Both the position numbers and the translations under genes were made by a program. A DNA stretch of 64,000 nucleotides from Eimeria praecox. Its lineage: Eukaryota. Shown here piece after piece: positions 1 through 46,400 of the stretch. The notes under the pieces are model-generated. The model was not told the DNA's origin, made no database searches, and worked only from the letters and a program-made list of their open reading frames with translations. The stretch is from positions 186,001-250,000 of the forward strand of contig OY986946.1 in NCBI GenBank assembly GCA_963920595.1. Reading direction: 5' to 3'. Each line of letters starts with the position of its first letter. The stretch's first letter is position 1.

Positions 1-3000
1 GGCGTCCTTCGGCAATCACTGCCAATGCGCGGAAAAAGCTAACTAGCGTGCGCTATTTTACCCTTCTTGTTAAAGCATATCGAATGGTGCTGCGAAGCAA
101 CTAGCCGTCTCTCAACAGCCGAAGGACAGATAGTTTGAGAGAATGCCAATAACGTATTTACTGTTTACAACTACCCCGAGGACAAAAGGGTGAACTCTAA
201 CAGAACGACCAGAAACACCAGTCTGGACTACGATTTCTGCTTCCCCTTGTACTGCCATTTAGGCGCACAGTGTGCAACGTGTTCGTCGCTCCTGTGCACA
301 GGCCCCATGCCTGCTTACCCGATTCGGGCACACCCTGCAATCGGTCGTAGTTGGACCATCGCTAATAACCTTCTTCCGGAGACCTTACAGCGCTCCAAAT
401 ACAGTCCTACACAAATGCACTGACATCGTGCCTGTCGTCCGGCTCTGCCTCACATAAGCATATCCCGTATCGGAGTGCTTCGCTACGAGAAAAGCCCGAC
501 AAAAGCAAGGAAAGAGCAACGGAAGCCGGCTTCGCCTCGCGTTGCAACCCAACAGACGTAAATGCATGCACGTACGCATCTGTGCTTGGTCTCATGATTG
601 CCAAAATGAACCAGATTGCTTGGGTTCCACTTCCATACTCTCTGGAAAAGACAGTGTACGAGTCCAACACCAGAGAGGGCTTCGCTCCACAGCGTTAACT
701 GACGAGCGCACACAATTTGCGCAACCCGACAATGCTCGCACATACTCCTCCCCTGACTATCCTCCAAATACAGTGTGCGCGCATTTCGGTAGACGGCGCC
801 AATTTCAATCAGGCCAGCAGAACAACGCCCAAGCTCGTTACCAACAGCAGAAACAATGCGGCTTGCTGCATGGGGCATTTTTGTTGAGCCCCGTCTTACT
901 GGACAGCTGAAGGAGTCAAAATGGTTCAGTAACCTACATATCGCACTTGAGTTGGTGCGTGGTGCAACCTGTTCGCCCCATATGCTGATGGAAATACGCT
1001 ACGAACACCCATTCCCGACACGGTTAACTCGAATGAGCTTCAGCGGCACCACCCTAGACTCCACCTGCTTGGGAAACGAAACAGCCTAATCAATCTCGCC
1101 AAGCCAGGAATGCCTGGCGTCGTTACGGGCTTCGCCATCTTCTGTGTGCCCCACTACCTACACAACGAGCCAAGCGTTCCGCGTTCTTTTGCACAAGTGC
1201 CACGCGAATCCGCATTACTTTCGTTATATTCACGCTGTTGGCAGCGGCTCGCCCTTCGCCATTCCTGCTATCCGCAGAACGGCTGTCATCATATATAACC
1301 AAAGTGGCCGTCAGTAGTACTACGCCTTTCCTACCAATCATTGCATAGTCGCTGCACCCCCTACCACGTATGGCAGTGCGCGTACAATGCCACGCCAAAC
1401 CACTGACGTCGTTTGCAATGCCAGCATTTGTCTCACAAACGCGCACCTGCCATCCAAGCATCAATAAAAGCCAGAGATGAGCAAGTTTAGAGGAAAACAA
1501 GTTGGGATTTCCCACACTGCAACTCTCTCAATCTGCACGCACGCACATACATCCCCATGCCTCCTGCCATACAAGCTGAAGCGTAACAGCAACCATGTTC
1601 GCGTTCACAAAAGAAATATTCCTGTCGACTGCTTCAGACCAGCACAGCATTGTCCTAGCTGGTATGTTCTTCGCCTCTGCTCAGCTTCACAGCCTTGTTG
1701 TGGACACACGTTCTGGGGAAAATAGCGCACAATCGGAACGCCAGAGAAGGCTTTGCCGCAGCGCGCTCGTGGCAAGCCAGATACAATGTTCACAAACCCT
1801 CAGTGCTCGCTTGTGCATATTCCCTAGTTCATGACCCAATAATGCACAAACCCATATCGTCAGGCTGGCCTAAGCAACTCCAAAGCTAAGTGCTAGTAGC
1901 AAAACCAAGCGGACCGCAGCATGGGGCATTCGTGCCAGATCGCTCCTTACTAGAGGACCAACGCCGAGAGATTATATTGAAGACGCTCGTAGAAAAGTAA
2001 TGGCATACAGGGATATGAACAGGTGCTTGCAGCTTGCCTCTGCGTACTGTGTTAGTGCGTCAACAACACATTGTAGAGGAATACGAAGCCTGGAGGCGGA
2101 CGAATAATGAATCCATAAATTGCACTCACTGTGAACACGGAACAGCCTAACTAGTCTGGCAAAATCACAAACAAACGCCTGCACTATGGCGTCTGCCTGC
2201 TGGTGTGTTGATCAATAACTACACATTGCGATAGGGTGTCTAAGGTTCCCGCCGCCTCAAGCCTAATGTGAATTTAGACCATTCGGACTGGCCGAAGCTA
2301 TTCCCGTTGTCTGCACGGCAACTGTTGTAGTACACGAACGGGATAAGCGCGAATGCTACTAATTAATATTACTTAGTCTTTAGAAAAATCCTCGGGTAGC
2401 TACTGCTTCCCCCACCATATATTGAGCTGCCAGTAGAATGACTCACCGATTCTCTCGCACTGCGCATAATGCCAGGCTCTGTCTCGCAAACGCAAGCCAC
2501 ATATCCAGACATCCTTGTATAGTAAGTACAGCAGAAGATCATACGCCTAGCAAAGCAAACGCATGCTCCTGCTGACAGCGCTTCTCTACAAATATGCTCA
2601 CGTGCAGTTACACGCCCACGTCAACCAACAGAAGGCGATAAACGTACGAGGATCCATACCAAGTGCCAAGCATATCGCTTTGCTTCTAAGTGCATACTTC
2701 CTGTGCAAAGCCGCACGGGATAGCAACGCCAGCGAAGGTTTGCCGTAGAACTCCTGTGGATGAGCTTATCTGAACAGACCAACCCCACGATGCATGCGCA
2801 TGGTGGGCCCCCAACACTACGCCAAAACAAGATTTATACTCTTATCAGCACGCAAAAATGATTTCAGGTAGGGCAGTCAAACACAGGCAAGACCAAAACA
2901 ACGTCAACCGCATGCAAATGGCTGCGCGGGACCCTTCTGCTCCACTCGCCACTCGCTTTGCCATAGGGAACGGCAAGTGCTGGCCCGCATATGCATGCCA

Positions 3001-16900: not shown

Positions 16901-19154
16901 TCTATATATCTGTATCTATATCTATATCTATATCTATATATCTATATCTATATATCTATATCTATATCTATATCTATATCTATATATCTATATCTATATA
17001 TCTATATCTATATATCTATATCTATATCTATATCTATATCTATATCTATATCTATATCTATATCTATATCTATATCTATATCTATATCTATATATCTATA
17101 TCTATATATCTATATCTATATATCTATATCTATATATCTATATCTATATATCTATATCTATATATCTATATCTATATCTATATCTATATATCTATATCTA
17201 TATATCTATATCTATATATCTATATCTATATATCTATATCTATATATCTATATCTATATATCTATATCTATATATCTATATCTATATATCTATATCTATA
17301 TATCTATATCTATATATCTATATCTATATATCTATATCTATATATCTATATCTATATCTATATCTATATCTATATCTATATCTATATCTATATCTATATC
17401 TATATCTATATCTATATCTATATCTATATCTATATCTATATCTATATCTATATCTATATCTATATCTATATCTATATCTATATCTATATCTATATCTATA
17501 TCTATATCTATATATCTATATCTATATATCTATATCTATATATCTATATCTATATATCTATATCTATATATCTATATCTATATATCTATATCTATATATC
17601 TATATCTATATCTATATCTATATATCTATATCTATATATCTATATCTATATATCTATATCTATATCTATATCTATATCTATATCTATATCTATATCTATA
17701 TCTATATCTATATCTATATCTATATCTATATCTATATCTATATCTATATCTATATCTATATCTATATCTATATCTATATCTATATCTATATCTATATCTA
17801 TATCTATATCTATATCTATATCTATATCTATATCTATATCTATATCTATATCTATATCTATATCTATATCTATATCTATATCTATATCTATATCTATATC
17901 TATATCTATATCTATATCTATATCTATATCTATATCTATATCTATATCTATATCTATATCTATATCTATATCTATATCTATATCTATATCTATATCTATA
18001 TCTATATCTATATCTATATCTATATCTATATCTATATCTATATCTATATCTATATCTATATCTATATCTATATCTATATCTATATCTATATCTATATCTA
18101 TATCTATATCTATATCTATATCTATATCTATATCTATATCTATATCTATATCTATATCTATATCTATATCTATATCTATATCTATATCTATATCTATATC
18201 TATATCTATATCTATATCTATATCTATATCTATATCTATATCTATATCTATATCTATATCTATATCTATATCTATATCTATATCTATATCTATATCTATA
18301 TCTATATCTATATCTATATCTATATCTATATCTATATCTATATCTATATCTATATCTATATCTATATCTATATCTATATCTATATCTATATCTATATCTA
18401 TATCTATATCTATATCTATATCTATATCTATATCTATATCTATATCTATATCTATATCTATATCTATATCTATATCTATATCTATATCTATATCTATATC
18501 TATATCTATATCTATATCTATATCTATATCTATATCTATATCTATATCTATATCTATATCTATATCTATATCTATATCTATATCTATATCTATATCTATA
18601 TCTATATCTATATCTATATCTATATCTATATCTATATCTATATCTATATCTATATCTATATCTATATCTATATCTATATCTATATCTATATCTATATCTA
18701 TATCTATATCTATATCTATATCTATATCTATATCTATATCTATATCTATATCTATATCTATATCTATATCTATATCTATATCTATATCTATATCTATATC
18801 TATATCTATATCTATATCTATATCTATATCTATATCTATATCTATATCTATATCTATATCTATATCTATATCTATATCTATATCTATATCTATATCTATA
18901 TCTATATCTATATCTATATCTATATCTATATCTATATCTATATCTATATCTATATCTATATCTATATCTATATCTATATCTATATCTATATCTATATCTA
19001 TATCTATATCTATATCTATATCTATATCTATATCTATATCTATATCTATATCTATATCTATATCTATATCTATATCTATATCTATATCTATATCTATATC
19101 TATATCTATATCTATATCTATATCTATATCTATATCTATATCTATATCTATCTA

Positions 19155-19208
<54 letters not shown>

Positions 19209-25200: not shown

Positions 25201-28200
25201 TTATCGACAGTGCTACTAAACCTTTTACACAAATCACCCCTTAGCCGCTGCTGCCTGGTGGCCACGGCGCCTCCCCATCCACTGACAATGCTTGCGGTGC
25301 ATGGCTATACCAAAGCATTCATACCTTGCAGATGCCAAAGACGAACGTAGGCACAGCAACCCAAACTCCCACCTATTGAACATTCAACCCCTTCTGAGAC
25401 ACCAAACATCCTGGACAGTAACAGAAACTGCACTCGAGCGGGAAAGATCCACCTGCGTCAATGCTCGTACTTCCTGGGCAAGCCAAGGCCGTTTCGCTGC
25501 AGCAAAGGACACTTCGCCACATTGCCGCCGGAATCAAGCACAGATACACTGCATAACCCCACGATGCTCATGTATGCAGGTATGCTAGCTCTCCGGCATG
25601 CTGATATTTTCCTGTCGGCTGGCCACAGTGATTTTAACCAGGGCACGCAAAGGAAAGCCAAGCTCAATGCCGAATGCAAAGCGCGGCAGGTAGCTGCGCT
25701 GGGTTTTCTTGTAGGCTTCTATGTTCTCTTATAGACAATGAAGACTGCAAATGGTAGAGAGAAAGATGATATAGCATTCATTTGACCTGATCGTAGCACG
25801 TTCGTGTACGATAAGAAAGGACAGCTGGTACAAATAACCTGCCGCACAAGAATAGCTACCACATATTTATGAATTGCACGCATACGAAACACAGAAGAGC
25901 AGACACACTTTTGTTAAACGAGGAACATCCGCCTGCATCACTTGTTCTTTCCCCGTTTGGGGCCCCTGGTTTTTCGATTGAACTGCCATGGCAATCTACA
26001 CATGCCCGATTTGGCGGTGCCATTCTCCAACGCCCGCCATTTTCCATTCCAGTCCTCCACTAAAAAGCTTAGCTCATTGTTTACCATGAAAGGAGGGGGC
26101 GGGTAGTAAGCATTGCAAAAAGCAAGGCGAAGACGTGTTTCGTATCACGCTGCAAATCAGCAGAAGGACGTTCACAACCATCCTTGCCATTAGCTAGCCC
26201 GAAATGGAGCAGTGCCCGTAACTGCACTCGCCAGATTGCACTGCTTGTACGCGCGTACGTTCTGCGCAAATCAGCGATCAAAAGCAACGCCGGAGACGGC
26301 TTCGCCACAACGTGTTCGCAGACGTTCGTGCACACAATCTGTATAGCCTTATGGCACTCATTGTTGCAGTTCCCCCCGCTCTCCATCAAATACTGCATAT
26401 ATTGCTGTCGCCAGGCGATGCTGAGTTCACCCAGGGCAACCGGTTCAACGCAAGGCTTAATGAATACTCCAAAGAGGTGCAGCTGGTCGAAACGTCGAGA
26501 ATCCAAACGATTAAAGGTGCAGCAGGGATATATCACACATAGACGATGACAGGCTTTGTCACGTTCGTCTCTGTTGATTACGGAGAAGTGCTCTGAACAC
26601 CCTCCAAAGGGATGACTAGCTTGGATGGCCACTTATACGCTCAAAAATGTTACCCTGTCCCCACATAATACAGCTAGTAACCTCGGCAAGCTCGAAACAC
26701 CCGCATGCTCTACACGCTCCTCCCTTTGTGTAATACTCAATAGCTACACAATGAGCTACTGGTTCGGTGTCGTGCACTACCAGTTGTTTTGTGATATCAA
26801 ATAACTACGCAATACGCTACGAGATTTACCAAACCCCGCTCAGATATTGGCTAGTCGTGCTGGTCGTGCCTCCGGCAGGCCGCCGACTGAAGCCCCCCCT
26901 TCGCTATTCCCATCCTCCGCATGGCCACTACCGTCATGCATTCCCGGGCTGAAGGGCAGTGCTACTAAGGTTTTGCAGCAAATAGCCGCGGCTAAGTGCT
27001 TGTTCCTTGCGCATATCGCGATGCAAGCACACTGCCACACACGTTCACCGACATCGCTTTTAATGCCATTATGTCCCCCAAACGCGCATCGGGGTTGTAA
27101 GTGCTCTAAGGGGATATCTTAACAAGAACATACTTGCTGGTCCAGCCCGCGGACGATCGCAATGTTAGAGCAGGTTATGCCAAACACTGCGCCAATATGC
27201 TCGCACAAACCAGCGCCGATATGCTCGCAGATGGTGCTTCCCTAGGCCTCAGCCATGTATTGCCTATCGGCGGGCGGGGAGGACCGAGCTCAAGCGTCAC
27301 TTTGGAATGGGACACCTGGACGCATTTGGCTCCTCTTGTAGTTGGAGGTTCAACCAGAATCCAAAAGGTTCGAGACATTCTAAAGTTATCACGAGCTCGC
27401 AGGCGGAGGGCCTGCAAGCACCTTTCCGCAGCTGCGCCAGCATATTACCGTGAGAAACCGAGCTTGAACAAAGTGGGTGGCGCATGCACAAATTGCACGT
27501 ACTCCGAAAAGAAAAGGCTACATTCGCCCAGCGAATCCAAAGCAACCGTTTTTTACTGCGCTTCTCCCTGTTTGTGTTGAGCAATATCTGCACAATGAGC
27601 TAACGGCTCTGCCTACTCCTTTGCTTTGCAAAGACTTGGAGGCCCTACCTAACCCCACGCAGGCCGTGCTGCAGGCTGCAACCCGCCCTTTGTTGCTCCC
27701 ATCCTGCGGATAACAATTACCTCCACGCAATGCCGTGCTGACGAGCAATGATATTAAACGTCTGAAGCAACTCATCGCGAGTCGTTGATTTCCTACCACA
27801 TATTGCAGTGTTCGTCTACTGTCTAACAGATTCGCTTACATCTTTTGCAGTTCCAGACTGCCTCCCTCAAACGCACATCGTCTATCGAAACACTCCACCC
27901 CTAAACATACCAGACACAAGCACCACACTGCAAGCGGATCATCCGCTTCTCACTCTGCAAATCTGCAAATCTGCTTGCAAGCGTCTACCCCTACATGTCA
28001 GCGAGCAGAAAACGTTTAATGTGTAAAGGCAGCCCGGAAGGCGAATGGGCGTCTAAGTGCACACTTCCTGGCCAAATCAAGGTTGACTCTAGCTCTGGAA
28101 CAGGCGTCTCCACACGGCAGAAGCAGGCGCTCGCGCATAACGTCAATAAAGTCCCAACTGTCGCGCATGCACGTCCTGTAGGTCGCAGATGTATACTGCC

Positions 28201-31200
28201 CATACGCATATCAGAAGGCGGAGCTGCTTCAATCAAAGCAGGCGAACGAAGCCCAAGCGACGCCAACTGCAAAGGAGACAAATGGCTGCATGAGGCAGCC
28301 TTGGCACATAGACTCCAGCGAAACTACGAACTAAAATCTAACTGTTCTGGATATCTGAAAGATATGATGGAATTATAGACTGTCAGCCTGCTTCCTGCTT
28401 GCCTTCGGGTACTATGCTTGACACTTTCCAGCGAGCTACTGAACTCGAACGAAAACTGGTAGCACATTAATAAGCCGCATCTACTCTAGACGAAACAGCT
28501 TAACTGGTCTCACCGAACCAGAAATACCATTACTGGCTCCTCTTTCTTTTATGCTCCCCAGTTACTACGTTTATGCAAACGGCGTGCGGGATTACACGAT
28601 CCGTAGTGGTAGCGCTGGCCGTGGTCTGCCCTTCGCTATTTGCAGTCGCAAGGCTATTGCCGCTAAGCACACCCAAGCATGTCGCCGATGCAATTAAGCA
28701 TGTGACAAAAATAAGGGTGAAGCCCTTTCTTACTCCTCGCATGTATTGTGCCGCACAGATCCTGCCTCAGTAATTCACTGATGCACTTTGCAGTGCACGC
28801 ATCTGTCTCGCAAACGCATATCGCACGAAGAACCACCCAGCTTCAGCAGGTGCCCAACACCTAGATCAAAACGAACTGGTACTCATCCCTATATTGTGAT
28901 ACCATATATCTACCATATACCTGAACAATTCACACGTGGACTATCATACCTTGGCCCAGAATATTAATGTACTGCTGGGGGTACGCACGCGCCCCCAACA
29001 GTTCGAGCAGCTAAGCGATTCACATTTGCGCAACTCTGTAGCCATACTCTCTGTGCGAACCAACGCACCTTCGTGACGCGAGAGAACACTTCTTCGCAAA
29101 TATTTCGTAGACGCGCTCACGGAAATCCTAGAACAACACCTTGCTCACGATGGTCTCAATTGTAGGTTTCGTAGTGCTCCACCAAGTCCCCCATGTCCCT
29201 TCGGCAGATGGGCGCGGGTTCAGCCGTAGTTAGCGAAAGCATGCTTAATACTGGCTGCAAAATGCTGCTGCGTCCATTGATCTTGGTCACGCTCTCGTCC
29301 GCTGAACGGCTCTTCGGTCCTCGCTCACTTGCAAAGGAAATGGCATGGTACACAGTGAAAGGTAATCAACACTGCTACAGAACGCTTGGCACAGTTTTGT
29401 TGTTGCTGCTTCCTCTTGCCGCGTTCTGCGCAGGACAAATGTTGCCCCGCCTATTCGCTGGAAATGTTTGCAATATCGGAAGAGGCCTCGCAAACCCACA
29501 TCGCGTTTCTAAATGCCCGGCCCACTAGACCTCAAAGAAGAACAAAGTTAAGGGAAGCGAGCATCGATTTCTCGCACTGCAGCCCCGCATGCCTTCAAGC
29601 ATGCCTGCATACAGCCATGACTACCGCCAAAAAACCTGAACCAAAACAGCTGTCGTCCCAGCGTCGAATAGATGCATCATACTTCCTGGACGAAGCAGCG
29701 CATGATGATGAGGGAAAAGAAAGCTAAGCCAAATCGTCGCTACAACCAGGCGCACATAATCTGCATAGGCCCACGATGCTGACACCCGCAGGTCCCGTAG
29801 CCCTCCGGCAAATACTGCCCGTTTTCTTCTCCGCAGACTGAGCTGCCTTCAACCAGCTCAAGCAAGCCAAGCTGAAGCTCAGTACCAACTGCGAAACATG
29901 GGACATGGTTGCATGGGGCATGCCGGGCCATTCCCTTCTTCGAAAGCCAATGAAGAAGTTTGCGAGGCGTCAGGGGCTTGCAAATCGACGGCTTGTTTTC
30001 CGTTTGCCCCTGCCTACTAGGTTAAAATCTATCAGCGTTTTGCAAGAAGATGCCGGGATTGAGTGACAATGAGTAACATATTCACATGCTACACCTACTT
30101 GGAATACAAAGCCGCTTAACTGATCGTGCCAAAAAGAAATACCCGCCTGCACTGCGAGTTACGCTTTACTCTGCGTTTTCCAATAAACACACACTACCGC
30201 TAAGGGTTCTACTTATTTTCGTCCAGCCCCATGCCCGTTTACACAATTTATGCTGCCCTCCGCAGGAGGACGGCTCTTCACCCTTGACTGCTCATGTCAT
30301 CCGCAGTACAGTTGCAATCACACGTAACCACCCTGTGAGTCAACCATACTAAACCTTTGACAGACGTAATTGGGCACGCATTGCTTCCTCTTACCACGTG
30401 TTTCCTTACACATATACTGCTTCGCCAATCTAGTGAAAACGGTTGTTATGTCACATGCTGTCTCGCAAGCGCATACGGCGTGTCCAAATGTCCCGGCCCA
30501 TTAGGTAGCAACTTTCACCACAGTAAACGGAAAAACAAAATGCTCTGCCCTGCGCTGTAGCAGTAAAAAATTGCATTCATGCAAATACATTCCCATTCCT
30601 GCTCGCATACAATCTGAAATGTACCAACGTCCGTATCTCCGTTCAGAAGATGAATTTGTTTCGGCGTTTCACACTCGCGTCAAACAATTCAAGCTGACAA
30701 ACGCTACGCGTACCCGCAACTCTTTTCGTTATTTATGTGCATACGTCCTGGGTAAAACAATGGGGAGCCCAAACGTTAGAGAATGATTCGCCACACGGTG
30801 GCACCGAACGCAAGAGCATACGCTGCATATTCCAACGATGCTTACACATTCACCTCTCCTGCCACTCCAGCAGCCACTGAGTGGCTTATTCCTTTCCGCA
30901 AAAGTAGATGATCCCGACAAGGCCAGTCGAACGGACTCCAAGCTCAATACCAACTGAGAAACGAGGCAGACGGCTGTACGGGACGTTCTTGTTCTCCTTT
31001 CTTTGACGCCCGAAGAGTGTCGAAAATACCCAAGCAGCTCGCCAGGCATCATGGCGCTAGGGCTGCGGCTCTGCTTCCCGGTTTCAGCTGCTACTATGGT
31101 ATTTCTTCGGCACTTTAATGAGCTTGAACGAGAATAGATTGGGCATTCACAAGCTGCACCTACTCCAACCTCAAAACGGCTTAACTGATTTCTCCAAAGC

Positions 31201-34200
31201 GAAACCATTTGCACAGACTAAAGGGTTCTTCTTCTTCCGCCTTACCCTATAGCTGTACAGTAGGCTAGGGCTTTCGCAGTGTCTTTTCCGAGACCCACGG
31301 AAATTAAAACAACTTGTGGCGTTTAGGCTACTTGCCGCGGAGCAAAATACGATAATAAGATTGTGCACCAAATGACAAATACACCCATATCCAGGCTGGT
31401 CGACAATGCAAGCAAACATTAGGACGAATACCCTGTAATATTTGAGTCTCCCTTTTGCGTATTGCGCTGCTCATGCGCACCCTTTACCGATTAACTTACA
31501 TCGCTGTTATTATCATAGCTTGCCCTGCACACGCATGCCAAGTAGTGAATTACCCCGTCGTTGTAGAGACGAACGCAAAGCGCGGCAAACGCAAAGCGCT
31601 CCTCCACTTCTCCCCATAATGCTTATACAGAAGCCTGGTCCCATAAACGCGTTCGCACCCCCGCCCAAAGAACCTGAACCCCGGCATTATTCAGACCTCC
31701 GCCGATCAAACACGATTGCTCCTACGCTCATACTGCCTGGAAAAGGCAACACACCACTGGAACTTAACAGGGCACCTTGCCACGCCGCGGCAGCAGGTGC
31801 GCGCAAACAAAACTACACAACGCCACGATGCTCAAGCATGCAGGCGCCCCGCAGGTTTCTCTTTTTTCAATGCTAGCCATTACCTGTACAATCAAATACA
31901 GATCCCCAAGCACTTCTGTGCAGGCGCCATGCGAATCTACGAGATTCGTGTTGCATGCATCGTCATCTATGCTCAGCCGTTCGCCATGAGCATCCCCCAC
32001 ACAACAACTGCCGTCATACCTCATAGGGTTGATCCGCAATTCCACTGACGATTTGACAGAAATCATTGCGTATTCACTGCTCCTTCCTTAGGCATTATGT
32101 TGCATATAAAGTGCTCCATCATTTGAATGGAACCTCTTGGAATCTCAGAGTCTGCCTTCCGGACTCATAGCACGGAGGAACTACTGTCCGAAAAAGAGTA
32201 CGATGAATGCAAAAATACCTCCCAGCTATTCTCATACTGCAACTGCGCATGCCTGTATGTATGCTTCTACACTCCCATGCCTCACATGAGATAGCGTGAA
32301 GCATAGCAGCATGCATGCACTTGCCCGAAAGAGAAACATGCTTCTATGCGCATACTGCCTGCAAAAATCAGTAGCCAATCGTATCTCCAAGAACAGCTGC
32401 CCCACACCGTTTTCGTGTGCATTTCGAGCACGAACAAGTTAAGCCCACAATGCGCACGCATGCAGGCTCCCTAGTGCTCAGTCAAATACTGCGTACACTG
32501 CTTTCGGCAGAAAGAGGTAACTTCAACCAAAGCATGCGAAGCCCGCCGAAGGCCAACGATAATCAAAAATGTTCAGCGCATTCAGGAGGCACCGTGTGCT
32601 TGGAGGCCGAGGGCATGCTTTTCTTTGCCCCTTCATATTATGTTGGAGTGCTACGAACGCTTTGCCCTGAGATGTCAAGCTCGAAGGAATGCCAATAGCA
32701 CGTTCATAAGTTGCACCTCCTCCGAGTCATAGAGGTTAACTACCCTTGCTACAAAAAAAACCGTCTGCACTGCAGGTGCCCCTCGTCTTTGTGATACCTA
32801 ATAACTACACGCTGTGATACCGGTTGCACCTTCGCTTCTGCAAGCGCCAAGCGAATCTGCTCAATTCATGTTTATCCCGCAGCCAGCGGTGGCCTGCCCT
32901 TCTCTGGTCCCGTCGCTGGCTGCCAATAACCTTTCCCACTTATCAGTGAGTAATTGCTCCTCCATTCTCTCATGTATTGCGCTGCACACATACTGCGTCG
33001 CCAATTGATAGCTATCGTTTGTATTGTCACACTCTGCCTCGCAAGCGCATATCCCGTATCGAAGCACCCAGCACCAGCGCATACCAAAACAGGGGACGGG
33101 TAGAGCAAGAGTCCCTACTCCCTCTCTGAAACAGCTCGACAAATCTGGCCGCATCCGCACACATATTCATGCCTGCTCGCGTACTATCTGAAACATATTC
33201 GTATCCACAACAGGGCCCAGAAACTTGATTTGGTCCGGGCGCTTCACGCACCACCTGCAAACAGGTCGAGCTAAGACGCGTTCCTTATCTCAGCAATGGC
33301 GCAGATCTGCTAGCTAATTAGGTCCTTACGCTCTGGGTGATACATCGACCGATCTCAGTGGCCGAGAAAGCTTCACCACACTGTGTGCTTAGGCGTGTGC
33401 GCACAAATTGCTTTAGCCCACGAAAGGGCACACCCACAAGCTTGCTGGCCCTCTTCAGTATGATCACATGGCATCACTTGCGTGCAAAGGAGGGCTTGCT
33501 TCCCTTTTGCCTATTGGAATGCTTTGGGCACTTTCCAGTCAGCCAACCGAAATCGAACCTTTGCCGTGGCGCGATGCGGATTTACAAATTATGTTGGCTG
33601 CGCCGCCAGATTCAGCCCTCGTTTCGCTCCTCCTGTCGCACCTCAAAACCAGGAATACCTTACACAAACGAGACAAGCGCTAATGCTGCTTAATGTACTA
33701 AACACTTGACACAAATCACAGCGTAACCGCTGGACCCTCCTGCCATGCATTTCCCTTGACATCCATTGGCACACCAATTAATCGACTTAGTTTGCTCTGC
33801 TCATTCTTGTCAAGCAAACGTATAGCGCTCTTCAAAGCACGCCATCCCTATAAAAGACACAAGGAGCAAGGGTAAAGCAAATGGAAGTCTCACCTTGAAC
33901 AATGCAAGCGTGCGGATGCCAGCAATTGATCTCTGACGCCAGACACACTGAGACCTCGCAGTACTCGCAGACGCGCAAAGTGGACGCAAAACCTTCTAAA
34001 TGCATACGTCCTGGGAACAAAAATAAGCGATCATAGTGGCGACGAACGGTTTGCCTAGCCGTGGCTGAAATCGTGTAGACCCACAAACCGCATTATCCCA
34101 CGATGATCCTACCTCCGGCTGTGCTAGCTCCGCCAAATATTGTCTGTATTCCTATCCGCAGACGGAACTGCGTTTAACAAATGAAAGCAACACAAGGTGC

Positions 34201-37200
34201 AGTTCAGTATCAACTGTGAAACAAGGCGTCTGACTGCATCGGGCGGCGGCTGCTGTTGGAAGGCAAACGAGAATCGAAAATGCTGGAAGTTTTCAGGGTC
34301 TGTCAGATCAGGGGCCTGACTCCCGCTTACCCCTACCTATTAAGTTGGCCTGCTACCAGCGTTCTGTCACAGGATGCAGAGCTTGATTGAAAATGAGTGA
34401 CACATATGTGTGTTTTACCAACTTGGAAGGTACAACAGCATTACTGGTCTCACAAAGCCAAAAGCACCCGCCTGCAGCGCACGTTGCGCTTTTCCGGTGT
34501 TACCCAGCTGGTGCACAGTGGACGACGGGCTCCGCGTCGTGGGAGCTGCACGCATACATACGCAACTCACGTTGGCCGTGCGCTCGACGGCTACCCGCCC
34601 TTGCGTATTCTCGCCATCCGGAAAATTGCCACTCCCATACATAAACGGGCGGATTGCTAAGGTCAGTGAGGCATTAGAAAAAAGGCATCACGTTGTTGCT
34701 TTTTCCTACAACGGTGCTTCGTGCTGCGGATGCACTGCCCTACCCATTCACTGGCATCACTTACTATTGTGTGGCACTCTGTCTCGCAGGCACATATCGA
34801 GTATCGAAGCAATCTGCCCCAGTAGAAGTCAAACAAAGTCAGAGCTGAAGTTAAAAATGTTGATTCGCTGCACACTGCAACTCCACGAGTATGCGCGTAA
34901 GGGCATACAAGTGTATGCCTGCTCCCATACAAGCTGGATTGTAGCATTGCCACCAACAGCAAAACGACGATATAGTTCGCATCAACACCATCACAGGATG
35001 CTAAATGCTTAGCCCCTCAGCAGGGGCCTGCACCTAGAGGTGTGCATACTCTCTAGACAAAATGGCACGCGATCGCAAGGCCGCGCCTGCACACAAACAA
35101 CTTCGTACCAAGATTCTCACATAGGGAGGATCCATAGCTTGCCGTCGATTACTTTACATGCAGCGGCAGGCGAATCGTACTGCAAGCAGTCCAAGCTTAA
35201 TATCAAGAGCGCAGCAAAGCCGCAGCCTGCACGGACCGGGATCGACGATTCGCTCCACATCGCATCCCGGGTTACAATCACGCATTTGCAGCACTCCCGC
35301 GAGGAATCATGTGCATGTAGGAAACATGATGACATCCCATTTGCATCTACTGTTGCCAAACTGTAAGCACTTTGTACTGAGATAGGGAGCTAAAACAAAA
35401 ATGAACGACACATTCATAAAGTACACCTACTCCGAACAGAAAACCTCCGTACTAGTATCGCCCGGCGAAAAGCATCTGCCTGGTACCCTGTTATGCTTGT
35501 GGCTCTCATTAGCGACACACACAAGCGATTGTGGGCTCCGCAGCTTTTCGTGCAAGCCTCATATGCATTTGCATAATTCATGCTCGTCGCGCTTCCAGCC
35601 ACGGGCATCCCTCGGGTATCGCCGCCCTGTGCAGTACAACAACTGGGCTGGTCGCCATGACACCTAAGCCCTTGCCACAAACCACCATGTGGCCCCTGCT
35701 TCCCCATACAACGTATGGCACTGCATAGACGCCATCTCACCATTACACGAATACATTCTGCAATTTCACTCTCTGTCTTAGAAACGCACATCGCGTTTCG
35801 AAGCACATCGCCCAAGTAATTAGCAGAAAATGGGGCTAAAGGGGGAGGCTGCTCCAGCACACCTTCACACCGCATTCCTAGGGATCTGCACGCAAGCTTA
35901 TCTAGATCCAAGATTGCCACCATGCACGCTGAGGCACAACGGTGTCCGTCACTTCCCCCGGAATATAAGGATTCCTCTAAGCGCATACTTGCTATGCAAA
36001 ACGGCGGGAGATAGTAATGACAGCTTTCTTTTGCTCTAATCACACGACGGGTGTGCCACTGGCTCCATGCTCTCGTTTGTAATTTGCAGGCACGTTTGCA
36101 CAACTCGTGTTGGCCCTTTCGTCAGCCGTGGCCGGTTCATCCGCAGAAGACCTATCATAATGCATATCCAGGTTAAGGTAAGGTTGCCAGTGCTGTTAAA
36201 GTATCTGGCACAAGCCGCAGCGTTATCCTTGTCTCGTTTTTGCAAATACTGAGCTGGCCATATGCCGCCTCACAAGTTCATTGACGGACTTCAAAACGTC
36301 AGGATATGTGCGGCAAAAGCTTGTAGTGTATCGAAAAAAACCCGCCCCAGTGGGCAACAAAGAAGGGCATGCCACAGCAAAACCAGGCTCACTCGTCTGT
36401 ACTTTGTAACTCTCATAATTCGCATGCATGCATATATCTGCATCTATGGACGTTTGCATACAGCCTGAGACGCAGGAGCACCCATATTCGTGCCGTGCAG
36501 ACGGCTTTGTTGCTGATAGAGTAGCTGCTTGGCTAACCACCACATGATCGTTAGCAGTGAGGCCTGTAGACGCCAGCACGCAAGGTGCATAACCCCACAA
36601 AGCTCGCACATGTAGGGTCGCAGACTCGCCGCCCTGTAATGTGGCTGCCTATGCTCCTACAGGCAAACTACACGGATTCTCACAAGGGCAAGCGAAAAAA
36701 ACCGAAGTTCTATACGAAATTCAAAGCTGTGCATCCGGCTGCATGGGGCCTCCCCGCTCAGCCCCTTCTTGTTGGGAGATCAACAAGAGTCAAATCTGTT
36801 CACAACACTCGGAGCAGATCACGGCTATGGCAGCAGCAGATCTGCTTGCCCTTGCCTTCTGGCAACTATGTTGGGATATCACCATCCCCATGCCGTGTCA
36901 TACCCCGCTCGAACGAAACTAATTAACGCCTGAAGGCAAAGATCCTTCTTTAGCCTCGTCACAACAGATACACTCGCCTGCAATGCAGGTTCCTCTTTCG
37001 TTTGTGCTAGCCAATGGATATACAACAGCCTTCCGTCCCGCCTTACACCCATGCAAACACCATAACAATCTACACGATTAATGGTGACGTGCTTGCCGCC
37101 TTTCGCTGTTGTTGCCCTCTGCCGAATGGGTGCCACCATGCATTACTGGGCCTGTCGAAGACCTTATTGCGCCTTTGGTAGAAAGCTAAGCGTAGTCGCT

Positions 37201-40200
37201 GTTTTCCCTCATCACGGACTGCGTTGCGTACATAATGCCTTGCAAATTCGATGGCATCGCTTGCGATCTCGGGCTCTGTCTTGCAAGTGCACTGCGCGGA
37301 TGGAAACACCACGCGCAAGCAGAGAAAAGCAAACGGAGCACGTGCTTTCCTTCACACTGCTCCTCTAAGAACATTGACGCATCCCTATACGCATTTATGC
37401 CTGTTTCCATACAGACTGAAACGTAAATGTATCAATTGCTGCCCCAGGATGTGGATCTGCATCGTGTAATTCGCACTTTCCAGAAAGTACACTCCGCATC
37501 TCCGGGACACTGGTATCAGGCTATTTACATACTCTCTGGCCGAAATAGCGTGCGAGTAGAGTATCGAGCTCGAACGAAAATAAGTAACAGATTGTAGGGT
37601 GCACCTCCACCGAACACAAAACAGCTTACCTAATCCTTGCAACCAGAACCACCCGCCTATACTGTAGATTGGTATTTCTTTTCTGTTGCTCAGCAGCTGC
37701 ACAAAGTAGCAGGCGCCCTATTACTTTCTTTACACGCCCTACGCGGGTCTGCACAGCTTGTGTTGGTCTTCCAGTCAGCTCCTGCCTCCCCATCGCTACT
37801 ATCGTCATCCGCAGAATAACTGTAATCCACAACTGGGATGATCACCAGTAGCGCCAGGTCTTCCGCAAAAAAAACATTAATCTATCGCTGCGTCTTTCTT
37901 TCACGCAATACGCTGCAAATAGGCTGCGCTGCCCATTCACTGGCATACTTGGAAATGGCGTACTCTGTTTCGAAAATTCCGATCACGTGTCGAAAGACTC
38001 CAGGCCAGCAGATACCGGAGACTAGCACGGATAGACAGAAAGAAAATCGTACTTCTCAATATGCAACTCCAGAGATCTGCACGCGCGCAAATCCACATTA
38101 CGGTCAAAGACCCCGAAACGTAACAGTATCATCGCTGTCCCCAGAAATTGTGTTTGCTTCGTCAGCTCCAACCGCGTTGACAGCCGGTTCGGCGCGCACG
38201 TCCCGTGCACTTCCTTAGCTACGGAAGCTATTTATGCGCTCACTCTCTGGCCAAAACAGCGGGGGAATTGGAACTGAGGAGAAGGCTTCGCCACACGGCG
38301 ACTGCTGGTGCGTTCATACAAGCTGCATGAAACTGCGATGCTCACACACAGAGCACGGGTAACTCTTTCCCTAGTACTGCATGCATGCCCCTTGGCAGAG
38401 AGAGTGGATTTCAATTAAGGCGGGTGAGCAAAACCCAAACTAAGTGCCAACTGCAACACCAAGCAGATGGTTTCATAGGGCCTCCTTGGAGAAACGCTTC
38501 TTGTTGGAAGCTGAACGAGATTCAAAATAGTTCTAAACGCTGAAGAAGCATCAGCGCCGTAGAGGTGAACGACCTGCCCCTACGTCGGTGCTGCTTCCTC
38601 AAGCGCAGTAGTATCAACACTCCAACATAAATTGCAAACAAGCTCGAACGAAAATGAGCTTTGACCACCTATGATTCGCAGCTGCTCCCACTGCCCGTGC
38701 GCATCCGCACAATTCGGGTTCGTCGCTCTGTTGTCACGTAGCCGCCCTTAGGCATTCCCCCATAGCCGCAGCAATCAAGCGTACCCGGCAGCTTCAAAGT
38801 GTTACTCATTGTTTGTACAATACAAATTGCCGCGTACTTGTTATTTCTTCGAACCTCGAATTGCGCTTCACGTATACCTTCTCTCCAAATAAAATGTTGC
38901 ATGCCGCGCTGTAGCATTCTGGTGGGCACCTCCTCATTAGGAACTAAAGAAAAGTGCAGATAAACCTACATGAGCTAGTACCTCCCCTTACCTTGCAATT
39001 ACGCACATGCACACACGTAGCGGTACGCATCCACGCCTGTCCACATACAAGCTGAAACGCCAAGGCGGCATAAACTCCTCCGGGAGACTGGATTTGAATG
39101 AAGTGCTTCTCACGTGCTAGAACCTTTCCTGGGTGCCAAACCCTTCTCATCTTCGCGCGCCTAGCAAGTAGCTATTTGCGTACTTTCTGGCCAACATGGC
39201 GTGCGATCATAACGGCATAGGAAGCTCTACCACACCGGGACGCTAGCCGCGCGTATGCAAACTGCATATTTCCGCGGTGTTCATGCATGCAGATTCCTCA
39301 GATCCCCCGCAAGTACTGCTGACACTCGTATGGACAGACGGGGTTGATTCCAGCAAGAGCAAACGTGTCAAGCCCAACCTTGACAATAAGTACAAAACGC
39401 GGCAGCTAGCTGGTTGGGGAGAATTCGGACAGTAGATGTTTGTTGGAAGACCCACGAAAAACGAAAATTTCTAATTGTGTAAAACGCTCGCGACGTTCCA
39501 TGCACGCCAGATCGCGGTGATGCCTCTTGTTTGCCTATCTATACTATATCGTGCTATCAGCACTTTACACTTGACAACCCGAACAACGTTGGGTAACACA
39601 TTTATCTGCTGCACTTCCTCCAAACAAACCTCAGCTTAACTAATTTGGCAGGACTAAGCCTGTCTGCAGTGCAGGCTCAGCTCCCGTTTGTGGCACCGTC
39701 TAGCGGCAGAATGAGCTAGGGGTTCCATATGATTCTGTGCAAAGGCCATGCGGGTTTACACAGTTCATCGTTGTGGCACTTTCGGCCGCTGGCCTGCTTT
39801 TCTCAATTTCCATCATGCGCAAAGCCTCTACCGCGTACGCTAACCAGCGGACCAGCAATGCTACGGAACGCTAGGCGGCAGTCACACCGCTTTCGCTGCC
39901 TCCCCCTACCGCATATACTTTGCAATTCACGCCACCCCAGTGACACAGTTTGTAGTGCCGCATTCTATCTCGCAGGCACGCACTGCACGTCAAACAGCTC
40001 CCGCGCAGTGGATACCACAGAACATCGCGGCTGATGTTAAACCAACTCCTGCTTCCTGTCACACTGCAAGTCCACATTTGGAAGCCAAGGTAGGCGCGCA
40101 TCAACACATGCATTCGTGCGTTCCGTTGGACAGCCCGAAAAGCAAACGCAGGCTTAGCGGTGCCCAGAAGGTGAATGCTCTCATGGTGCATCCTACATGC

Positions 40201-40440
40201 CACTGCGCGTTGGAGCTCCTAGGCACTTCACATCCTCGCACCTCTGGAAGCTAATTATGTGCATACCTCCTGGTAAGCGTAGAGCGTGACTGGAACGGAA
40301 GATGCGGATTCGACACACCGTGCCTGAATACCGGAGGATTCAAGCTGCATACGTCCGCATGACTCACGGCAGCAATGCACGTAGACCCTCCAGTTATCGG
40401 CTGTAGTCTCTGTGCGCCTATCGACAGAATGAGCTGCTTT

Positions 40441-40474
<34 letters not shown>

Positions 40475-43400
40475 AAGGCAAACTTCAATAACAACTGCAA
40501 AACAATGCACCTAATCGCACGAAGCAGGCTTGTCGGATTGGTTCCCGTTAGCGCGATTTTAGATGCTCGAAATGAAGAAATAGCGCGCATGGAGGATAAG
40601 CACGGCATTACTGAGCTTCAAACCCGCTACTGCGTTACGGTTAACCCTAAACAACACCCGACACACAAACACAAGGCGCACGTCGTCTGCACTCGAAGCA
40701 ACCTAACTACTCTCGCCAAACGGTGTCGTAGTTCTGCGCTATGAGTTCCGCGTCCTTTTGTCATCCCCAATACCTAAGCGGCGAGCAACGGATTCCTCGT
40801 CTCCCCGTGCAAGCTCTATGCGAATTTAAGCAATTCCTGAAGTTCACACAGCCGGATGCTGTTAGTGGCCCCCTTAAAGCAACTAACAGAATAACCGGGC
40901 AGACCGCCAACGCTACTAAATATATGGTACAAATCGCTGCTTAATCTCTGCGTGCTGTTACTACTAGCTAAGGTACCCAGATGGTGACTCGCGAATTCAT
41001 TAAGATCGTTTTTAATGTCGGACTCCGTCTCGCGAACGCATAGCGCATGTCGAGGCATCCGGCATCAGTACACGCCGAAGAAAAGCGCAGATAGACAAAA
41101 CGAGCACCCGCTTTCCCTTTCACAGCAACTGCACAGATCTGCGCGTAGGACACCCTGCATATCCACCTGAGTTCGCATACTGCCTACAGCGGAGCAATAC
41201 CCTCAAACGCTCCGAGCAGATGCCTGTGCTGCTCACAGCATCGTTGGTGCGCAAACCATGACAGGATCGAGGGTGCAAAGAAAGCAAAATACTTCCTAAA
41301 CACTTGTTGATAGGCGGATTCAATTTCATCCAGGGCAAATCAACAAACCCCAGGCCAAATACCGGCCGCAGCAGGAGGCAGCTGGCTCCAAGGGCTGTCC
41401 CTTTCGAATCGCGTCTTGTTGGAAACCAGCACGAATCCAGAATCTACAAGCCATGCAAGCTGTGTCTGCTCGAAAAGGACAGCGTAAGTCCTCTGGTTAA
41501 GCCAAAGTTACGCACCTGTGCTCCGAGCTTGCCTTTTCCTTCAGTGCGAGCATACAGGAGAAGCGACGCTCATAGAATGTTTGTTCTGGCATACGATTTC
41601 CCTATTCCCAAACGTCGTGAACGTCTTTCCTTCGCTACTTCCGCCATCCGCAGAACTGGTGCCATCATGCATCACTGGGCTGGTCCGCAGCCCTAGTAAG
41701 CGTTTTGGGTAAAACAACGCGTAGCCGGCTTTCACCCCTATCACGCGCTGCGCTGCAAATGCAATTAAACGATATTATTCATGACGCTAGATTGTGTCGT
41801 GCTAACCCATACCGCGTACTAAAACGCCTTTCACAAGTGCATGTAGTAGAAGAGCACGAGCAGGGTTCTCGTACAAGCTGGAAGGTGGAACACACAACAA
41901 CGGGCGAACGGTTGGAAGCGATTCGGCTACTTCAGAATTGGTGCAAGCTGCATGGCGTGCTGAACGTGCCGCATTTCCGCTCCTCTGGCAGCGAGTTAGA
42001 TGAATACGTTATGGACAAACCCCCGTGCGATCTCAATGCTCGGGAAGGCATCCTCACACAGCGCCCGTAAACACAAGCATGGGCACCTCGTGCACACGTG
42101 TGAGCACATCGGGTCCTTTGCTCACACAGCCAGGTCTACGAGGCTCCTTTTGCTAGATGGAGGCGAGTCCTTGTAAGGCAAACGAGCCAAGCCCAAACCC
42201 TGAATGTCCTGCAAAACAGTGCTTCTGGCCGCACCGGGTGTGCCGGCGAAATCATTTCTACCTGGCAGCCCAATAAGATGAAGACAAAGAAGTGCGCATC
42301 ACCAGCATGCATGACTTTGCGCTGTATTACGTTGGTCTCGGACATTCACGGAAGCGTGTTACAAACATCCTCTGATAAGTCGGTTAGACCGAAACAATGG
42401 AAGTAGCACATCAAGCTGCACCTGTTCCGAAACGAAAACAGAATGGGTTATTCAGCCAAACAGGGAATACTCTACTGAGTTACGAGTTTCGTTTTCTTTT
42501 GTGTTAACCATGCAAGCGCCCCTTAGGTTTAGAGGTCCACGGCTTCTGTTCTTGCCGGCGTTTTGCTATACGCGTTCTCTGCAGAACAGCGAAGATAGCA
42601 TAACGGGTATTGCACCCAGTCGGCATAGACGTTTGACACGAATCACAGATCAGCCATTCATACCTCGTATTACATACTGCTCGGCACATACACTGCCTCA
42701 TCATTTCATTTGCACTGTCTGCAGTGCTAAACGTGGCCGCATCAAAACATGGCACCCACCGGAGCACTGCTTCCATTAGCAATCAAAGCCCAACGCAGGT
42801 AGGTTAAACCAATCTCCATTTCCTTACACTGTTACTCCAGAAATCTTCACGCATGCACACGCACCTTAGTCCCTGTTATCAGACAGTCTGAGATGCAGAA
42901 GCGCCCATACCTAACCATCCCAAGACCTAAGCTCCAAGTGCATACGTCCTGGACGAAGGGGCGACCCGTGGTAAAGCTACACAAAGCTTCTTCACACCAC
43001 GAGTGCAGGTGCAGGCATACAAACTGCATAGCCCCATGATGCCCTCTCATGTAGTCGCTGCACCGTTTGTGCCATTTACTGATTAGTCGACTCCTACCGG
43101 CAGAGGAAGCAACGTATGGACAAGGGAAGCGAACCATGTGGAGGCTCAGTGTCAACTGCAGAACGAGCCAGCTGGCTGTATGGGATGTTCCTGCCGTAAC
43201 ACGTTTGGTTGGACAAACTAGAGAGAGTCGAAAATGTTCAAGATGTTCACCCGGCATGACGGCACTGCAGTCCGACGGCCTACATCCTCTTCGCTTGTGC
43301 CTACGACGCCGCCGTAGCTTACCGGGCACGAACGCAAATGATGCATTCTTACGTTTCGCCTACTGCAGATACAAAGTAGCTTAAGTGTGAATTTATACCC

Positions 43401-46400
43401 GGGCCATCCCCTTTAACCCCCAGGTTTCCTTTATTTTGTGTTACTCAATAGCCGCAACTGGTGCTACAAATCCTGCTTTCTCCTGTGCGCGTGCCATGCG
43501 GATCGTGTCCACAGCCCTTGGCCGTCATGCTGCAGGCAGCAGTGCAATCTCATCTACTCCTGTCACTCGCCGAAAAGTAGCCATCAGACGCACGCGCAGT
43601 GACCTTCAATCATTGTAGACGACACAAACCAGTGCGCAGTCCGTTTTGACTCCTATTATGTACTGCGCGGCACACGCCCTGACAATTCTGTGTCACTATG
43701 TCTGATGCCAGGCTCTGTGCTACAAGCGCATGCCGGGTATCGGAAATTCCCGCCCCAGCAGACACCAAAAATAAGGGCACAGCTAAAGCAAAGAGGCTTC
43801 AACGTCTGCTGAGCCCGCAATTGCGTGAAGTGCACGCTGGCACATACACAAACATGCCTGATCGCATACAAACTGAACCGTAAACGTCCCCTTAGCCGCG
43901 TAAAAAAACTGGATTTATTTGTGGTGCTATGCACTTTCACAAACACCTCGAGCTGCTGAATGCATCGCCTCGGCGCACTTCTTAAAGCTAGTTTTGTGCA
44001 TACGTGCTGAACAAAAAGCGCACGATCCGAAGCCCGGGAGTCGTAATACTGCACCTGAAGACACGAGCACGCAAATCGCATAACCGTATTATGCGAACGT
44101 ATGCAGGTCCCCTAGCTCCTCGGCTCCTCGGGATATATAAAAACGTTTTCAAGCGTGGCCAGTAAACCAGCCAAAGATAAGGAATGTTTAAGGCGTTGAG
44201 GGAACATCAAGGGAATGGCGACGCGGAGCCTGCTTCCCGTTTGCCTCGGCATGCTACGGTGATTTGCTATCAATGCCTTGCCGTAAGCTAGCCAGAACCC
44301 ACGAAAATAGATAACACATTCATACGGTGCCACTTCGTCGAACACAAGACAGCATGGCTAGTCTCAGCAAACCAGAAGTACCAACCCGCACCACGAGCTC
44401 CGCTTTCCTTTGTGTTAAGTAATCATTATATGGTGGCTTACGGGTGCCGCATTCCTTTGTGCAAATGCTGCATGGCTCTACACAATTCGCGGCTTCGCCG
44501 TTGCTCGCGGCCCCACCTTCTCGAACCCCCATAAAACAAACAATTATTATGCTTACCCTAGGATATCGCCAAAGTTACTAAACGTGGGAGGCAAATGACC
44601 GAGCAGCGAGCAGTTCTTCCTATCCTGTGTGGGGCCGCGGATATAAAGCCTCACCAATTGATTGATAGTCTGTAGTGCCAGTCTGTCTCGCCAGCGCACT
44701 GCGCATTTTCATACACCCCGCCTCTGTAGGTACCAATCAAGAGCCCAGCTACAGCAAAGCAAGATAATCGCTTCTCTTCACGCAGGATTTCCACAAAGCT
44801 GCACGCTGCATAAGTACATCAATACATCCAGGGAGACAGCCTGAGACCTATCCATCCACCAAGCCGAGCCGACGAGTTAGCGTCAAACTGCATAGGCACT
44901 GGCCAAACCATCCCAATACTACAACGCTAGAAAAGGCTTCACCATCCTGTATCACCAGAGCAAAGCGCAAATACTACACACCTTTACAATGCTTACACAT
45001 GCACGCCCCGTAGCGTTCCGTGAGGCATCGCCTATGCTCTCTCAACAGGCCTTCCTGCTCTCTCCGCAAATACCATTTCCCAAGACGGCCCTTCAAGGCA
45101 TGCCCGTGCATATCAACGAGAACGTATATAATGCCCTCAGCCTTCCTAGAAACCCAGGACGAACCGCCGCCCGCACCGTTTGCAGAACCGTACACCCACC
45201 GCCACACGCCATGTTCCCTCAGCACAACCTTTCCCACTTTCTGCATACAGCCGTTCACACACCTGGAATTGCTTCAAACCATCACCATCCCTCTCTTTTC
45301 AAAAGCCAAAATATCTCAAAGTATCGCAAACAGCGAATGCGAACAAACACGCCACTACGGACCACTAACGCACCTCCTGTGAAACACCACACCCACTGCC
45401 ATACACCATACACAGTGATCCCACCTAGCTGCTCCCTCCTAGAACGCCCCCCACCCGTACAGTACAACGCCCATAATCACATCTGCCTCAGAGCAAGCAA
45501 GCCCTACCCATACCACGCGTGCTCACATAAACACCAACACCTCACGATACGCACTTCCTGCGAAACACCACATCCTCTCCCACACACCCTGCACCCTCAA
45601 AACATTCTCCACCCGCCCCCTGCAGACAGTTATCGGTCGGTCCCCATCAACTCCAAATAAAATCCCTGATCACCCTCATCAACCCAAACAAACATCAAAC
45701 CGCCCTCCTGCGTCTGTAGACGTTCCAGCGCACACAGCGCTACTCACCTCCTGTGAAACACCATGTAGATATCTACTCCCACGCAGCATACGCGCTCAAC
45801 GAACGCACCTTCATTCTCTCTCTCAAACTCTCCACTCCTGTACTCCACACTGTCACCACTCACCTTTGCTCCTATTTGCAAAACTAGCACAATCCACCAC
45901 GCCTTTACAGCCACTTCGCTGCGGACAACTAACTCACTTCCTGTGAACAACCATTCATATGGCCCCACACCTTGTTAACGTTAACGCACCATGCTACCCT
46001 CTCTGCACATATCCCGACCCAGGCGAACTACAGGCAACACCTGCCTCTGCTCCTGAATGTAAACCCACAACAAAACATGCGCCTATACAGGAAGGCCGCA
46101 GCAAACGACCTAACTCACCTTCGGTCAAACACAGCACCCACTCTCACACACCATCCGCTCCAAGCCCAACTGCCTCCGCTCTCTGCATGTATCCCTTACC
46201 ATACTCAACAGCCAAAACACCTGCCTCTCGTGCGAAATCGCAGCCTATCCCAAATCATCGTGTCTCTAGTCAGCATGGGCACCCTTGCGCACCTTCTGTA
46301 AAACACCACAACTACGCCAACACAAGCAGCTCATCCTGAAGGCGCCTTCTTGCTCTCCCTTTCTCTCTCTGCCTCCAACCATCTGCCCCCATGCTTAACG

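Follow-up and report, generated by a model that had tools for sequence, protein, structure and literature searches.

A probable gene of consecutive one-codon exons in a 64-kb window of Eimeria praecox

The minus strand of a 64,000-nt window of Eimeria praecox (contig OY986946.1; "the window" means this whole stretch) carries two adjoining arrays, one old and one young, of AG-NNN-GT sites, in which three nucleotides stand between a splice acceptor and a splice donor. The sites belong to two families of duplicated units, their splice letters are conserved against decayed introns, and the triplets, when joined, leave a single phase open. These arrays are probably part of a gene whose exons are single codons, with 417 coding nt in 63 kb, and which would have grown by tandem duplication of intron-plus-codon units. 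As far as the sequence indicates, the triplets would be spliced to one another and translated. About 139 three-base sites are predicted to be joined, out of 63,166 nt (a coding density of 0.66%). All array sites lie on the minus strand and are given by their first base in the numbering of the window.

Two arrays of acceptor-triplet-donor sites

The window falls into three parts: diverged sequence of about 50% GC (1-10950 and 19208-45300), a TATATC microsatellite (10951-19207), and a tandem repeat of about 1,475 nt (from about 45370 to the end). When the minus strand was scanned for CAG-N(k)-donor with a pyrimidine-context filter, the spacing k=3 was counted 10, 24 and 116 times in three regions; at other spacings the two old regions had 0-2 matches and the young array 0-13, and on the plus strand the counts were 0-2. 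The old array consists of a 5' part (19280..45030), built of monomers of about 1,090 nt, and a 3' part (639..10400), which probably extends below position 1. The young array (45374..63804) continues beyond 64000 and holds eight intron monomers of about 170-200 nt per higher-order repeat of about 1,475 nt, each with a terminal 3-nt site. The two unit families resemble each other at the junction level only. They meet at a dead old unit and a decayed young-type monomer (45033..45222; 64.5% identity over 200 nt by blastn), whose acceptor, read by eye, is CAA and not CAG. No long exon is evident between the arrays, in keeping with the proposal of an earlier, sequence-only reading that the old array continues the helix of the young one.

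The old array comprises 42 copies of its monomer, decayed to about 65% identity to the consensus, and a unit profile search shows that they tile the region. The principal site of this monomer, here called A, retains AG..GT at 37 of 40 positions, against 0.176 expected under neutral intron decay (p = 6e-25); the A-site splice letters are under purifying selection relative to the intron. Intron homology spans the whole length of the unit at 0.56-0.69 identity per 50-column block, and the splice letters alone reach at least 0.9. A profile stripped of the splice sites, and trained on live units, matched 40 units, namely 35 with a live A site, three with a dead one and two lacking A; it missed units 37535 and 35991, in both of which the upstream part is lost. 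Special conservation of the 135 nt upstream of A was considered and rejected, since these positions (0.65-0.68) are the same as the remaining intron. The tree of old units is star-like, with a median end branch of 0.44 (support values are rough).

The triplet inside this conserved frame is itself unconserved, with 14 different codons across the 37 live sites, and its first position carries the majority letter in only 16 of 37, below the neutral level (p = 0.012). T is avoided (2 T versus 17 C, p = 5e-4): simulated neutral decay from GAA, AGA or AAA gives 7.6-8.9 T where 2 are seen (P = 0.005-0.016). By these sequence measures, the old-array triplets behave as selected exons. At these sites, Glu, Lys and Gln are written almost entirely with -AA codons (14 versus 1 with an AG end), a preference that would avoid a competing acceptor ahead of the donor; the young array is without such avoidance.

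The live A sites of the 5' part are at 44006, 42948, 40269, 39186, 38246, 37535, 35991, 35052, 34010, 33332, 32358, 31736, 30747, 29685, 29050, 28067, 27136, 26261, 25473, 24569, 23570, 22720, 22091, 20990, 20137 and 19282, and those of the 3' part at 10255, 9203, 7590, 6534, 5784, 4772 (with an AAG acceptor), 4302, 3266, 2700, 1712 and 641. Three A sites are dead: 44896..44898, with donor CT instead of GT, in a unit whose second site has a weak GTCT donor; 42008..42010, with acceptor CAT and no variant letter in three sequencing runs; and 8232..8234, with donor TT. In the last two units the second site (41877 and 8172, respectively) is intact. Predicted introns of the old array measure 60 to 1,098 nt, apart from a single one of 9,024 nt.

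The old monomer has a second AG-NNN-GT site, B, which follows the A position by about 62 or 120-145 nt. Nine intact B sites form a 5' group, about 120-145 nt downstream of A (43872, 41877, 41183, 39051, 37415, 36464, 34933, 33187 and 30613), and three form a 3' group within 1573..9140 (9140, 8172 and 1575); the units of 41183 and 36464 have B only, their A being deleted. AG..GT is kept at B in 16 of the 35 aligned units with letters there (p = 4e-4), ten of which have the full donor. The state of B is bimodal: AG, GT and the +5 G are kept in 10 of 12 units with +3 A versus 3 of 23 others (Fisher 8e-5). Live B sites also occur in 4 of 5 units without A versus 8 of 32 other units (p = 0.03). The splice scores of the 12 live B sites fall inside the A-site range, 34933 being among the weakest, and their residues are five Leu, two Ile, one Phe, three Ala and one Ser.

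A third position about 75 nt upstream of A, C, gave five doubtful sites (43023, 38322, 26338, 24637 and 3341), which were left out of the exon count. As proven exons they were rejected: AG..GT is present in 9 of 33 units and the full donor in 5 of 33, which is not above the neutral level (p = 0.18 and 0.12). Two of them score as well as real sites. The C sites resemble the B sites and would contribute Phe, Leu or Ile.

The young array has thirteen full or partial copies of its repeat, the 12 complete ones being 94.8-99.7% identical to one another. Within a copy, the eight monomers share 46-61% identity (shuffled control 41-44%), with AG and GT common to all. There are 90 live young sites, with 52 Glu, 12 Arg and 26 Lys codons, and each period offers four Glu sites, one Arg and up to three Lys. 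When donors with +5 T are counted as dead, seven sites, mostly four Glu, one Arg and two Lys, are live in 11 of the 12 complete periods and eight in one. Nine of the 13 copies have CCG as the acceptor of the third Lys site, and the second Lys donor lacks the +5 G in three copies, all of which retain CAG at the third Lys; in one copy both sites are intact. The young repeat occurs as two haplotypes, each silencing another Lys site, through acceptor CCG or donor +5 T. The sole triplet change among young copies is found in a copy with the weakened donor.

Reading phase and predicted product

When all 139 sites are joined, phase 0 contains no stop, phase 1 two and phase 2 five, and on this sequence evidence phase 0 is taken as the reading phase. 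The sequence-only reading had considered the old array alone, as 38 triplets read from high to low coordinate. These are present on the minus strand from 44006-44004 to 641-639 and reproduce its 38-residue peptide exactly, with T at 2 of 114 nt; phase 0 is free of stops, phase +1 has one (6534/5784), and phase +2 is open and basic (no stop, K or R at 24 of 37 residues). The peptide is nevertheless incomplete, as it combines 37 A sites with one B site (41183) and leaves out 11 intact B sites. Its lack of Phe and near-lack of hydrophobic residues is a product of this omission, and as an ordered helix the 38-residue set has no heptad moment (p = 0.75-0.76). The idea was thus right in outline and wrong in the peptide.

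With the missed B exons added, the 5' half would become an amphipathic heptad segment. In the set of 49 A and B exons, the residues at positions 4, 8, 11, 15, 18 and 22 are Leu, Leu, Ser, Leu, Ile and Ile, with 4-3 spacing; in the 5' part all of these predicted heptad a/d positions except Ser 11 are apolar, and the p values attached to them depend on the exon inventory. The strongest hydrophobic moment of any 21-residue stretch, taken at 102.9 degrees, has p = 0.005 (residue and unit shuffles, uncorrected), and over the first 24 residues the moment peaks at 104 degrees. Five of six Leu, Ile or Phe B exons fall on heptad a/d (p = 0.031, uncorrected), and B sites of the 5' group supply the predicted a/d positions of three heptads. 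The A-only set yielded no heptad moment (p = 0.70).

Given the predicted splicing, the modelled young product has the features of a single alpha-helix (SAH): it contains E, K and R only, places opposite charges at i+3/i+4 and has no apolar seam. The order of a Glu block followed by a basic block ties for the best i+3/i+4 score, as do 21 of 105 orders in all. The old-array segment has a charged core and a 5' part with an apolar seam, which argues for a coiled coil over an SAH in that part; its charge order, computed from the A-based set, is not above shuffles. The joined product is modelled as a charged helix of about 90 residues that leads into three coiled-coil heptads, then into a charged stretch and lastly into a short amphipathic end.

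The window would then be the middle of one minus-strand gene, the ends of which would lie outside it. Ordinary GT-AG splicing, one intron after another, would join the exons in phase 0 and yield a long charged helix passing into a short coiled coil, a protein that would function as a spacer or rod containing a dimerising stretch. An exon of 3 nt does not give the spliceosome enough room to hold its two splice sites simultaneously, so that more than 100 in a row would need stepwise joining with very high fidelity. The arrays probably grew through tandem duplication of intron-plus-codon cassettes. The old monomer, carrying a charged A and an apolar B triplet, would have spread in an old burst; the young monomer would have formed the eight-monomer repeat, in which damage to one of two Lys sites per period would leave seven. 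Loss or gain of a splice site would remove or add one residue with no frameshift. With one codon per exon, single base changes would suffice to retune the length of the helix and its heptad register. We lean towards the view that such gain and loss, across well over 100 consecutive one-codon exons, acts as a frame-safe editor at the level of the residue and keeps both arrays, which were built separately, to a period of seven residues, and that skipping could tune the length of the rod in the cell.

Weighing of the evidence and of alternative explanations

Several observations weigh against this reading. The absence of stops is weak by itself (P = 0.07-0.23 under neutral decay from GAA, AGA or AAA), as the sequence-only reading had cautioned; the caution holds for the stops and does not carry over to the T depletion, which exceeds neutral decay. 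Third positions of A triplets are rich in A (27 of 37), which is a poor donor context. Splice and triplet columns of the young array are not significantly less variable than the others (1/49 versus 122/1,394 columns, p = 0.067), the Lys switch may come down to just two mutations that homogenisation has spread, and the treatment of Lys donors with +5 T as dead is an assumption. In addition, 52 of the 90 young triplets end in AG and so offer a competing, zero-length acceptor.

The heptad evidence has weak points of its own. Six inventories and three statistics were tried, and the p of 0.005 would fail full correction; it weakens to 0.04-0.07 with the C sites included and becomes 0.6 once the weakly scoring 34933 is left out. 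For the A and B set, the whole-length moment (p = 0.41) and the count of apolar pairs (p = 0.09) are not significant, and the i+3/i+4 order of charge pairs is null in an A-based set that lacks B and has one coordinate off by a base (p = 0.28-0.49). Even with B masked, the seven 5' units with live B form one subfamily by pairwise identity, in a group picked from the unit tree, and the spacing and register of B are therefore partly inherited and not the outcome of seven independent events.

The foremost alternative, which we regard as unlikely, is that the triplets are real coding microexons used combinatorially, with heavy skipping or only a few included at a time, so that the helices produced would differ in length and sequence, as is reported for schistosome micro-exon genes. 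All exons are frame-neutral, the strength of the sites covers a wide range, dead and doubtful sites occur, and the first position of A triplets diverges faster than the introns, all of which would suit such use. The 90 young sites, on the other hand, encode just three residues in blocks of fixed order, which is of no use for choosing one among many, and the predicted heptad register of the old array requires that neighbours be included together. Partial skipping is compatible with the one-codon-exon gene; only dominant skipping is its rival.

It is rather improbable that the splice signals are used and the product is non-coding, either as stepping stones for the recursive removal of a very long intron or as a spliced non-coding RNA. 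The AG directly before GT in the 52 young triplets has the geometry of a zero-length exon, and the avoidance of T could partly reflect splice context. Against this, a terminal AG is found in just one of the 37 A triplets and in none of the 12 B triplets, and no live triplet starts with GT, so that neither ratchet geometry fits the old array. The single open phase and the different residue classes of A and B triplets in helical register also speak against a non-coding product, as does a search of Rfam, which returned 0 matches.

That the arrays are an unspliced, decayed satellite, whose AG..GT core has persisted by chance or because a protein binds it as a DNA motif, is very improbable. Both arrays are indeed built of tandem repeats, and the pattern can also arise in ordinary short repeats: when metagenome contigs were scanned for the two-site pattern, 27 loci were returned, none of them related to the window, and inspection of all 27 showed mostly short tandem repeats. 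The probability of chance retention at A is, however, that given above. The letters kept are exactly those of the acceptor and donor consensus, they enclose a hypervariable triplet, and they recur in both unit families and at both sites, A and B, of the old monomer. The triplets of the 27 control loci mostly show the same uniformity as the bases beside them. Six of these loci (L006, L022, L023, L024, L026 and L027) are 48-nt tandem repeats matching the two-site pattern, and are probably unrelated coding repeats.

Hardly credible is an origin of the introns from an introner, a transposon that generates introns, with copies inserted at intervals of one codon into an exon that already existed. 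The star-like unit tree and the sharing of unit ends by other contigs might speak for it. Against it, the consensus intron ends have no terminal inverted repeat, and it is implausible that insertions would hit every codon boundary in a single phase; one monomer also has two triplet sites, neighbours share deletions head-to-tail, and the young array has the plain form of a tandem higher-order repeat.

Known systems and further features of the window

Each site is a segment of no more than 30 nt between an AG acceptor and a GT donor in consensus context, as in spliceosomal microexons. The closest known system appears to be the micro-exon genes (MEGs) of Schistosoma mansoni, for which PMC10526429 gives 10-20 exons per gene, mostly of 15 bp and ranging from 6 to 81 bp (3 to 81 in its abstract). 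Their short exons are mostly multiples of three, separated by introns of 0.1-5 kb, and are missed by automatic annotation; the genes encode secreted proteins of up to 189 residues. As in the MEGs, a coding sequence would be split here into runs of very short exons; the locus differs in its about 139 consecutive 3-nt sites, its paralogous tandem introns and its predicted charged helix. Exon size and number thus place the locus outside the MEGs, though it is like them in principle, and by analogy it can be regarded as an extreme variant of micro-exon genes.

Isolated microexons of 1-15 nt are known from plants (PMC8831610), from Amphidinium (3-nt exons; PMC12584245) and from RPS24 (a 3-nt microexon; PMC12207440). 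As presented in these sources, they indicate that an exon of at most 3 nt between GT-AG introns can be included by the spliceosome, and that microexons may be adjacent; they occur singly or in runs of two or three among normal exons, unlike the long homogeneous array of the window. Tandem duplicated, mutually exclusive exons share an origin by tandem duplication of intron-plus-exon units, but are portrayed as domain-sized alternatives used one at a time (PMC9741552, PMC5740500), whereas the one-codon units here appear additive. SAH (ER/K) domains, according to PMC5812594, are dominated by E, K and R with opposite charges at i+3/i+4, EEEEKKK being exemplary, and one Arg among basic residues is reported to be stabilising in related peptides. 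The young array has the same E/K/R pattern, a Glu block and then a basic block with one Arg; the apolar seam of the old 5' segment sets that part apart from SAH domains, and encoding codon by codon is not described for them in that source. No long array of one-codon exons appeared among the matches listed in searches of the open-access literature.

If the proposed gene is real, this locus would allow direct tests of how far exon definition reaches and in which order introns are removed. Duplicated intron-plus-codon cassettes, in which the amino acid is free to change per copy, would provide a route to new protein sequence, and some eukaryotic "satellites" would hide coding domains invisible to gene finders and read aligners.

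A search of sequencing runs listed three in which this DNA occurs, from one organism and two samples, and no RNA run, which is evidence in neither direction. The window was compared over 25300-45290 with contigs from these three runs, one run being possibly the source of the window. The main contigs of the three runs match this range with no other letters, and no strain differences appeared in their main pieces over it. Other contigs of the same runs match unit segments (38228-38261 and 25549-25582) with different flanks, and all four motifs tested from them are absent from the window; further units thus probably exist elsewhere in the genome, outside the window.

Among the old introns, a five-unit periodicity of similarity had p = 0.033 for one of eight periods tried, which is not significant after correction. 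The introns ending at 19282 and 1712 are by a wide margin the closest pair of all (63% identity, 100/100 support) and stand eleven units apart; their sequences point to later conversion or duplication. Two further AG-NNN-GT sites, at 32992 and 33254, lie outside the A, B and C positions and score 4-5 bits; their number is about the chance expectation from other spacings. The motif GCATGCAT, known from coccidian and green-algal introns, is enriched 3.6-fold.

Open frames of at least 130 aa from stop to stop number 42 in 1-45400, the longest ones lying inside the microsatellite. This (TATATC)n tract of 8.3 kb (10951..19207) lies within one predicted intron, bringing it to the 9,024 nt mentioned above, and its minus strand of 8,249 nt contains 3 GT and 5 CAG. 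It includes about 158 TATATATC variants, and short TA and GA runs precede it on the minus strand.

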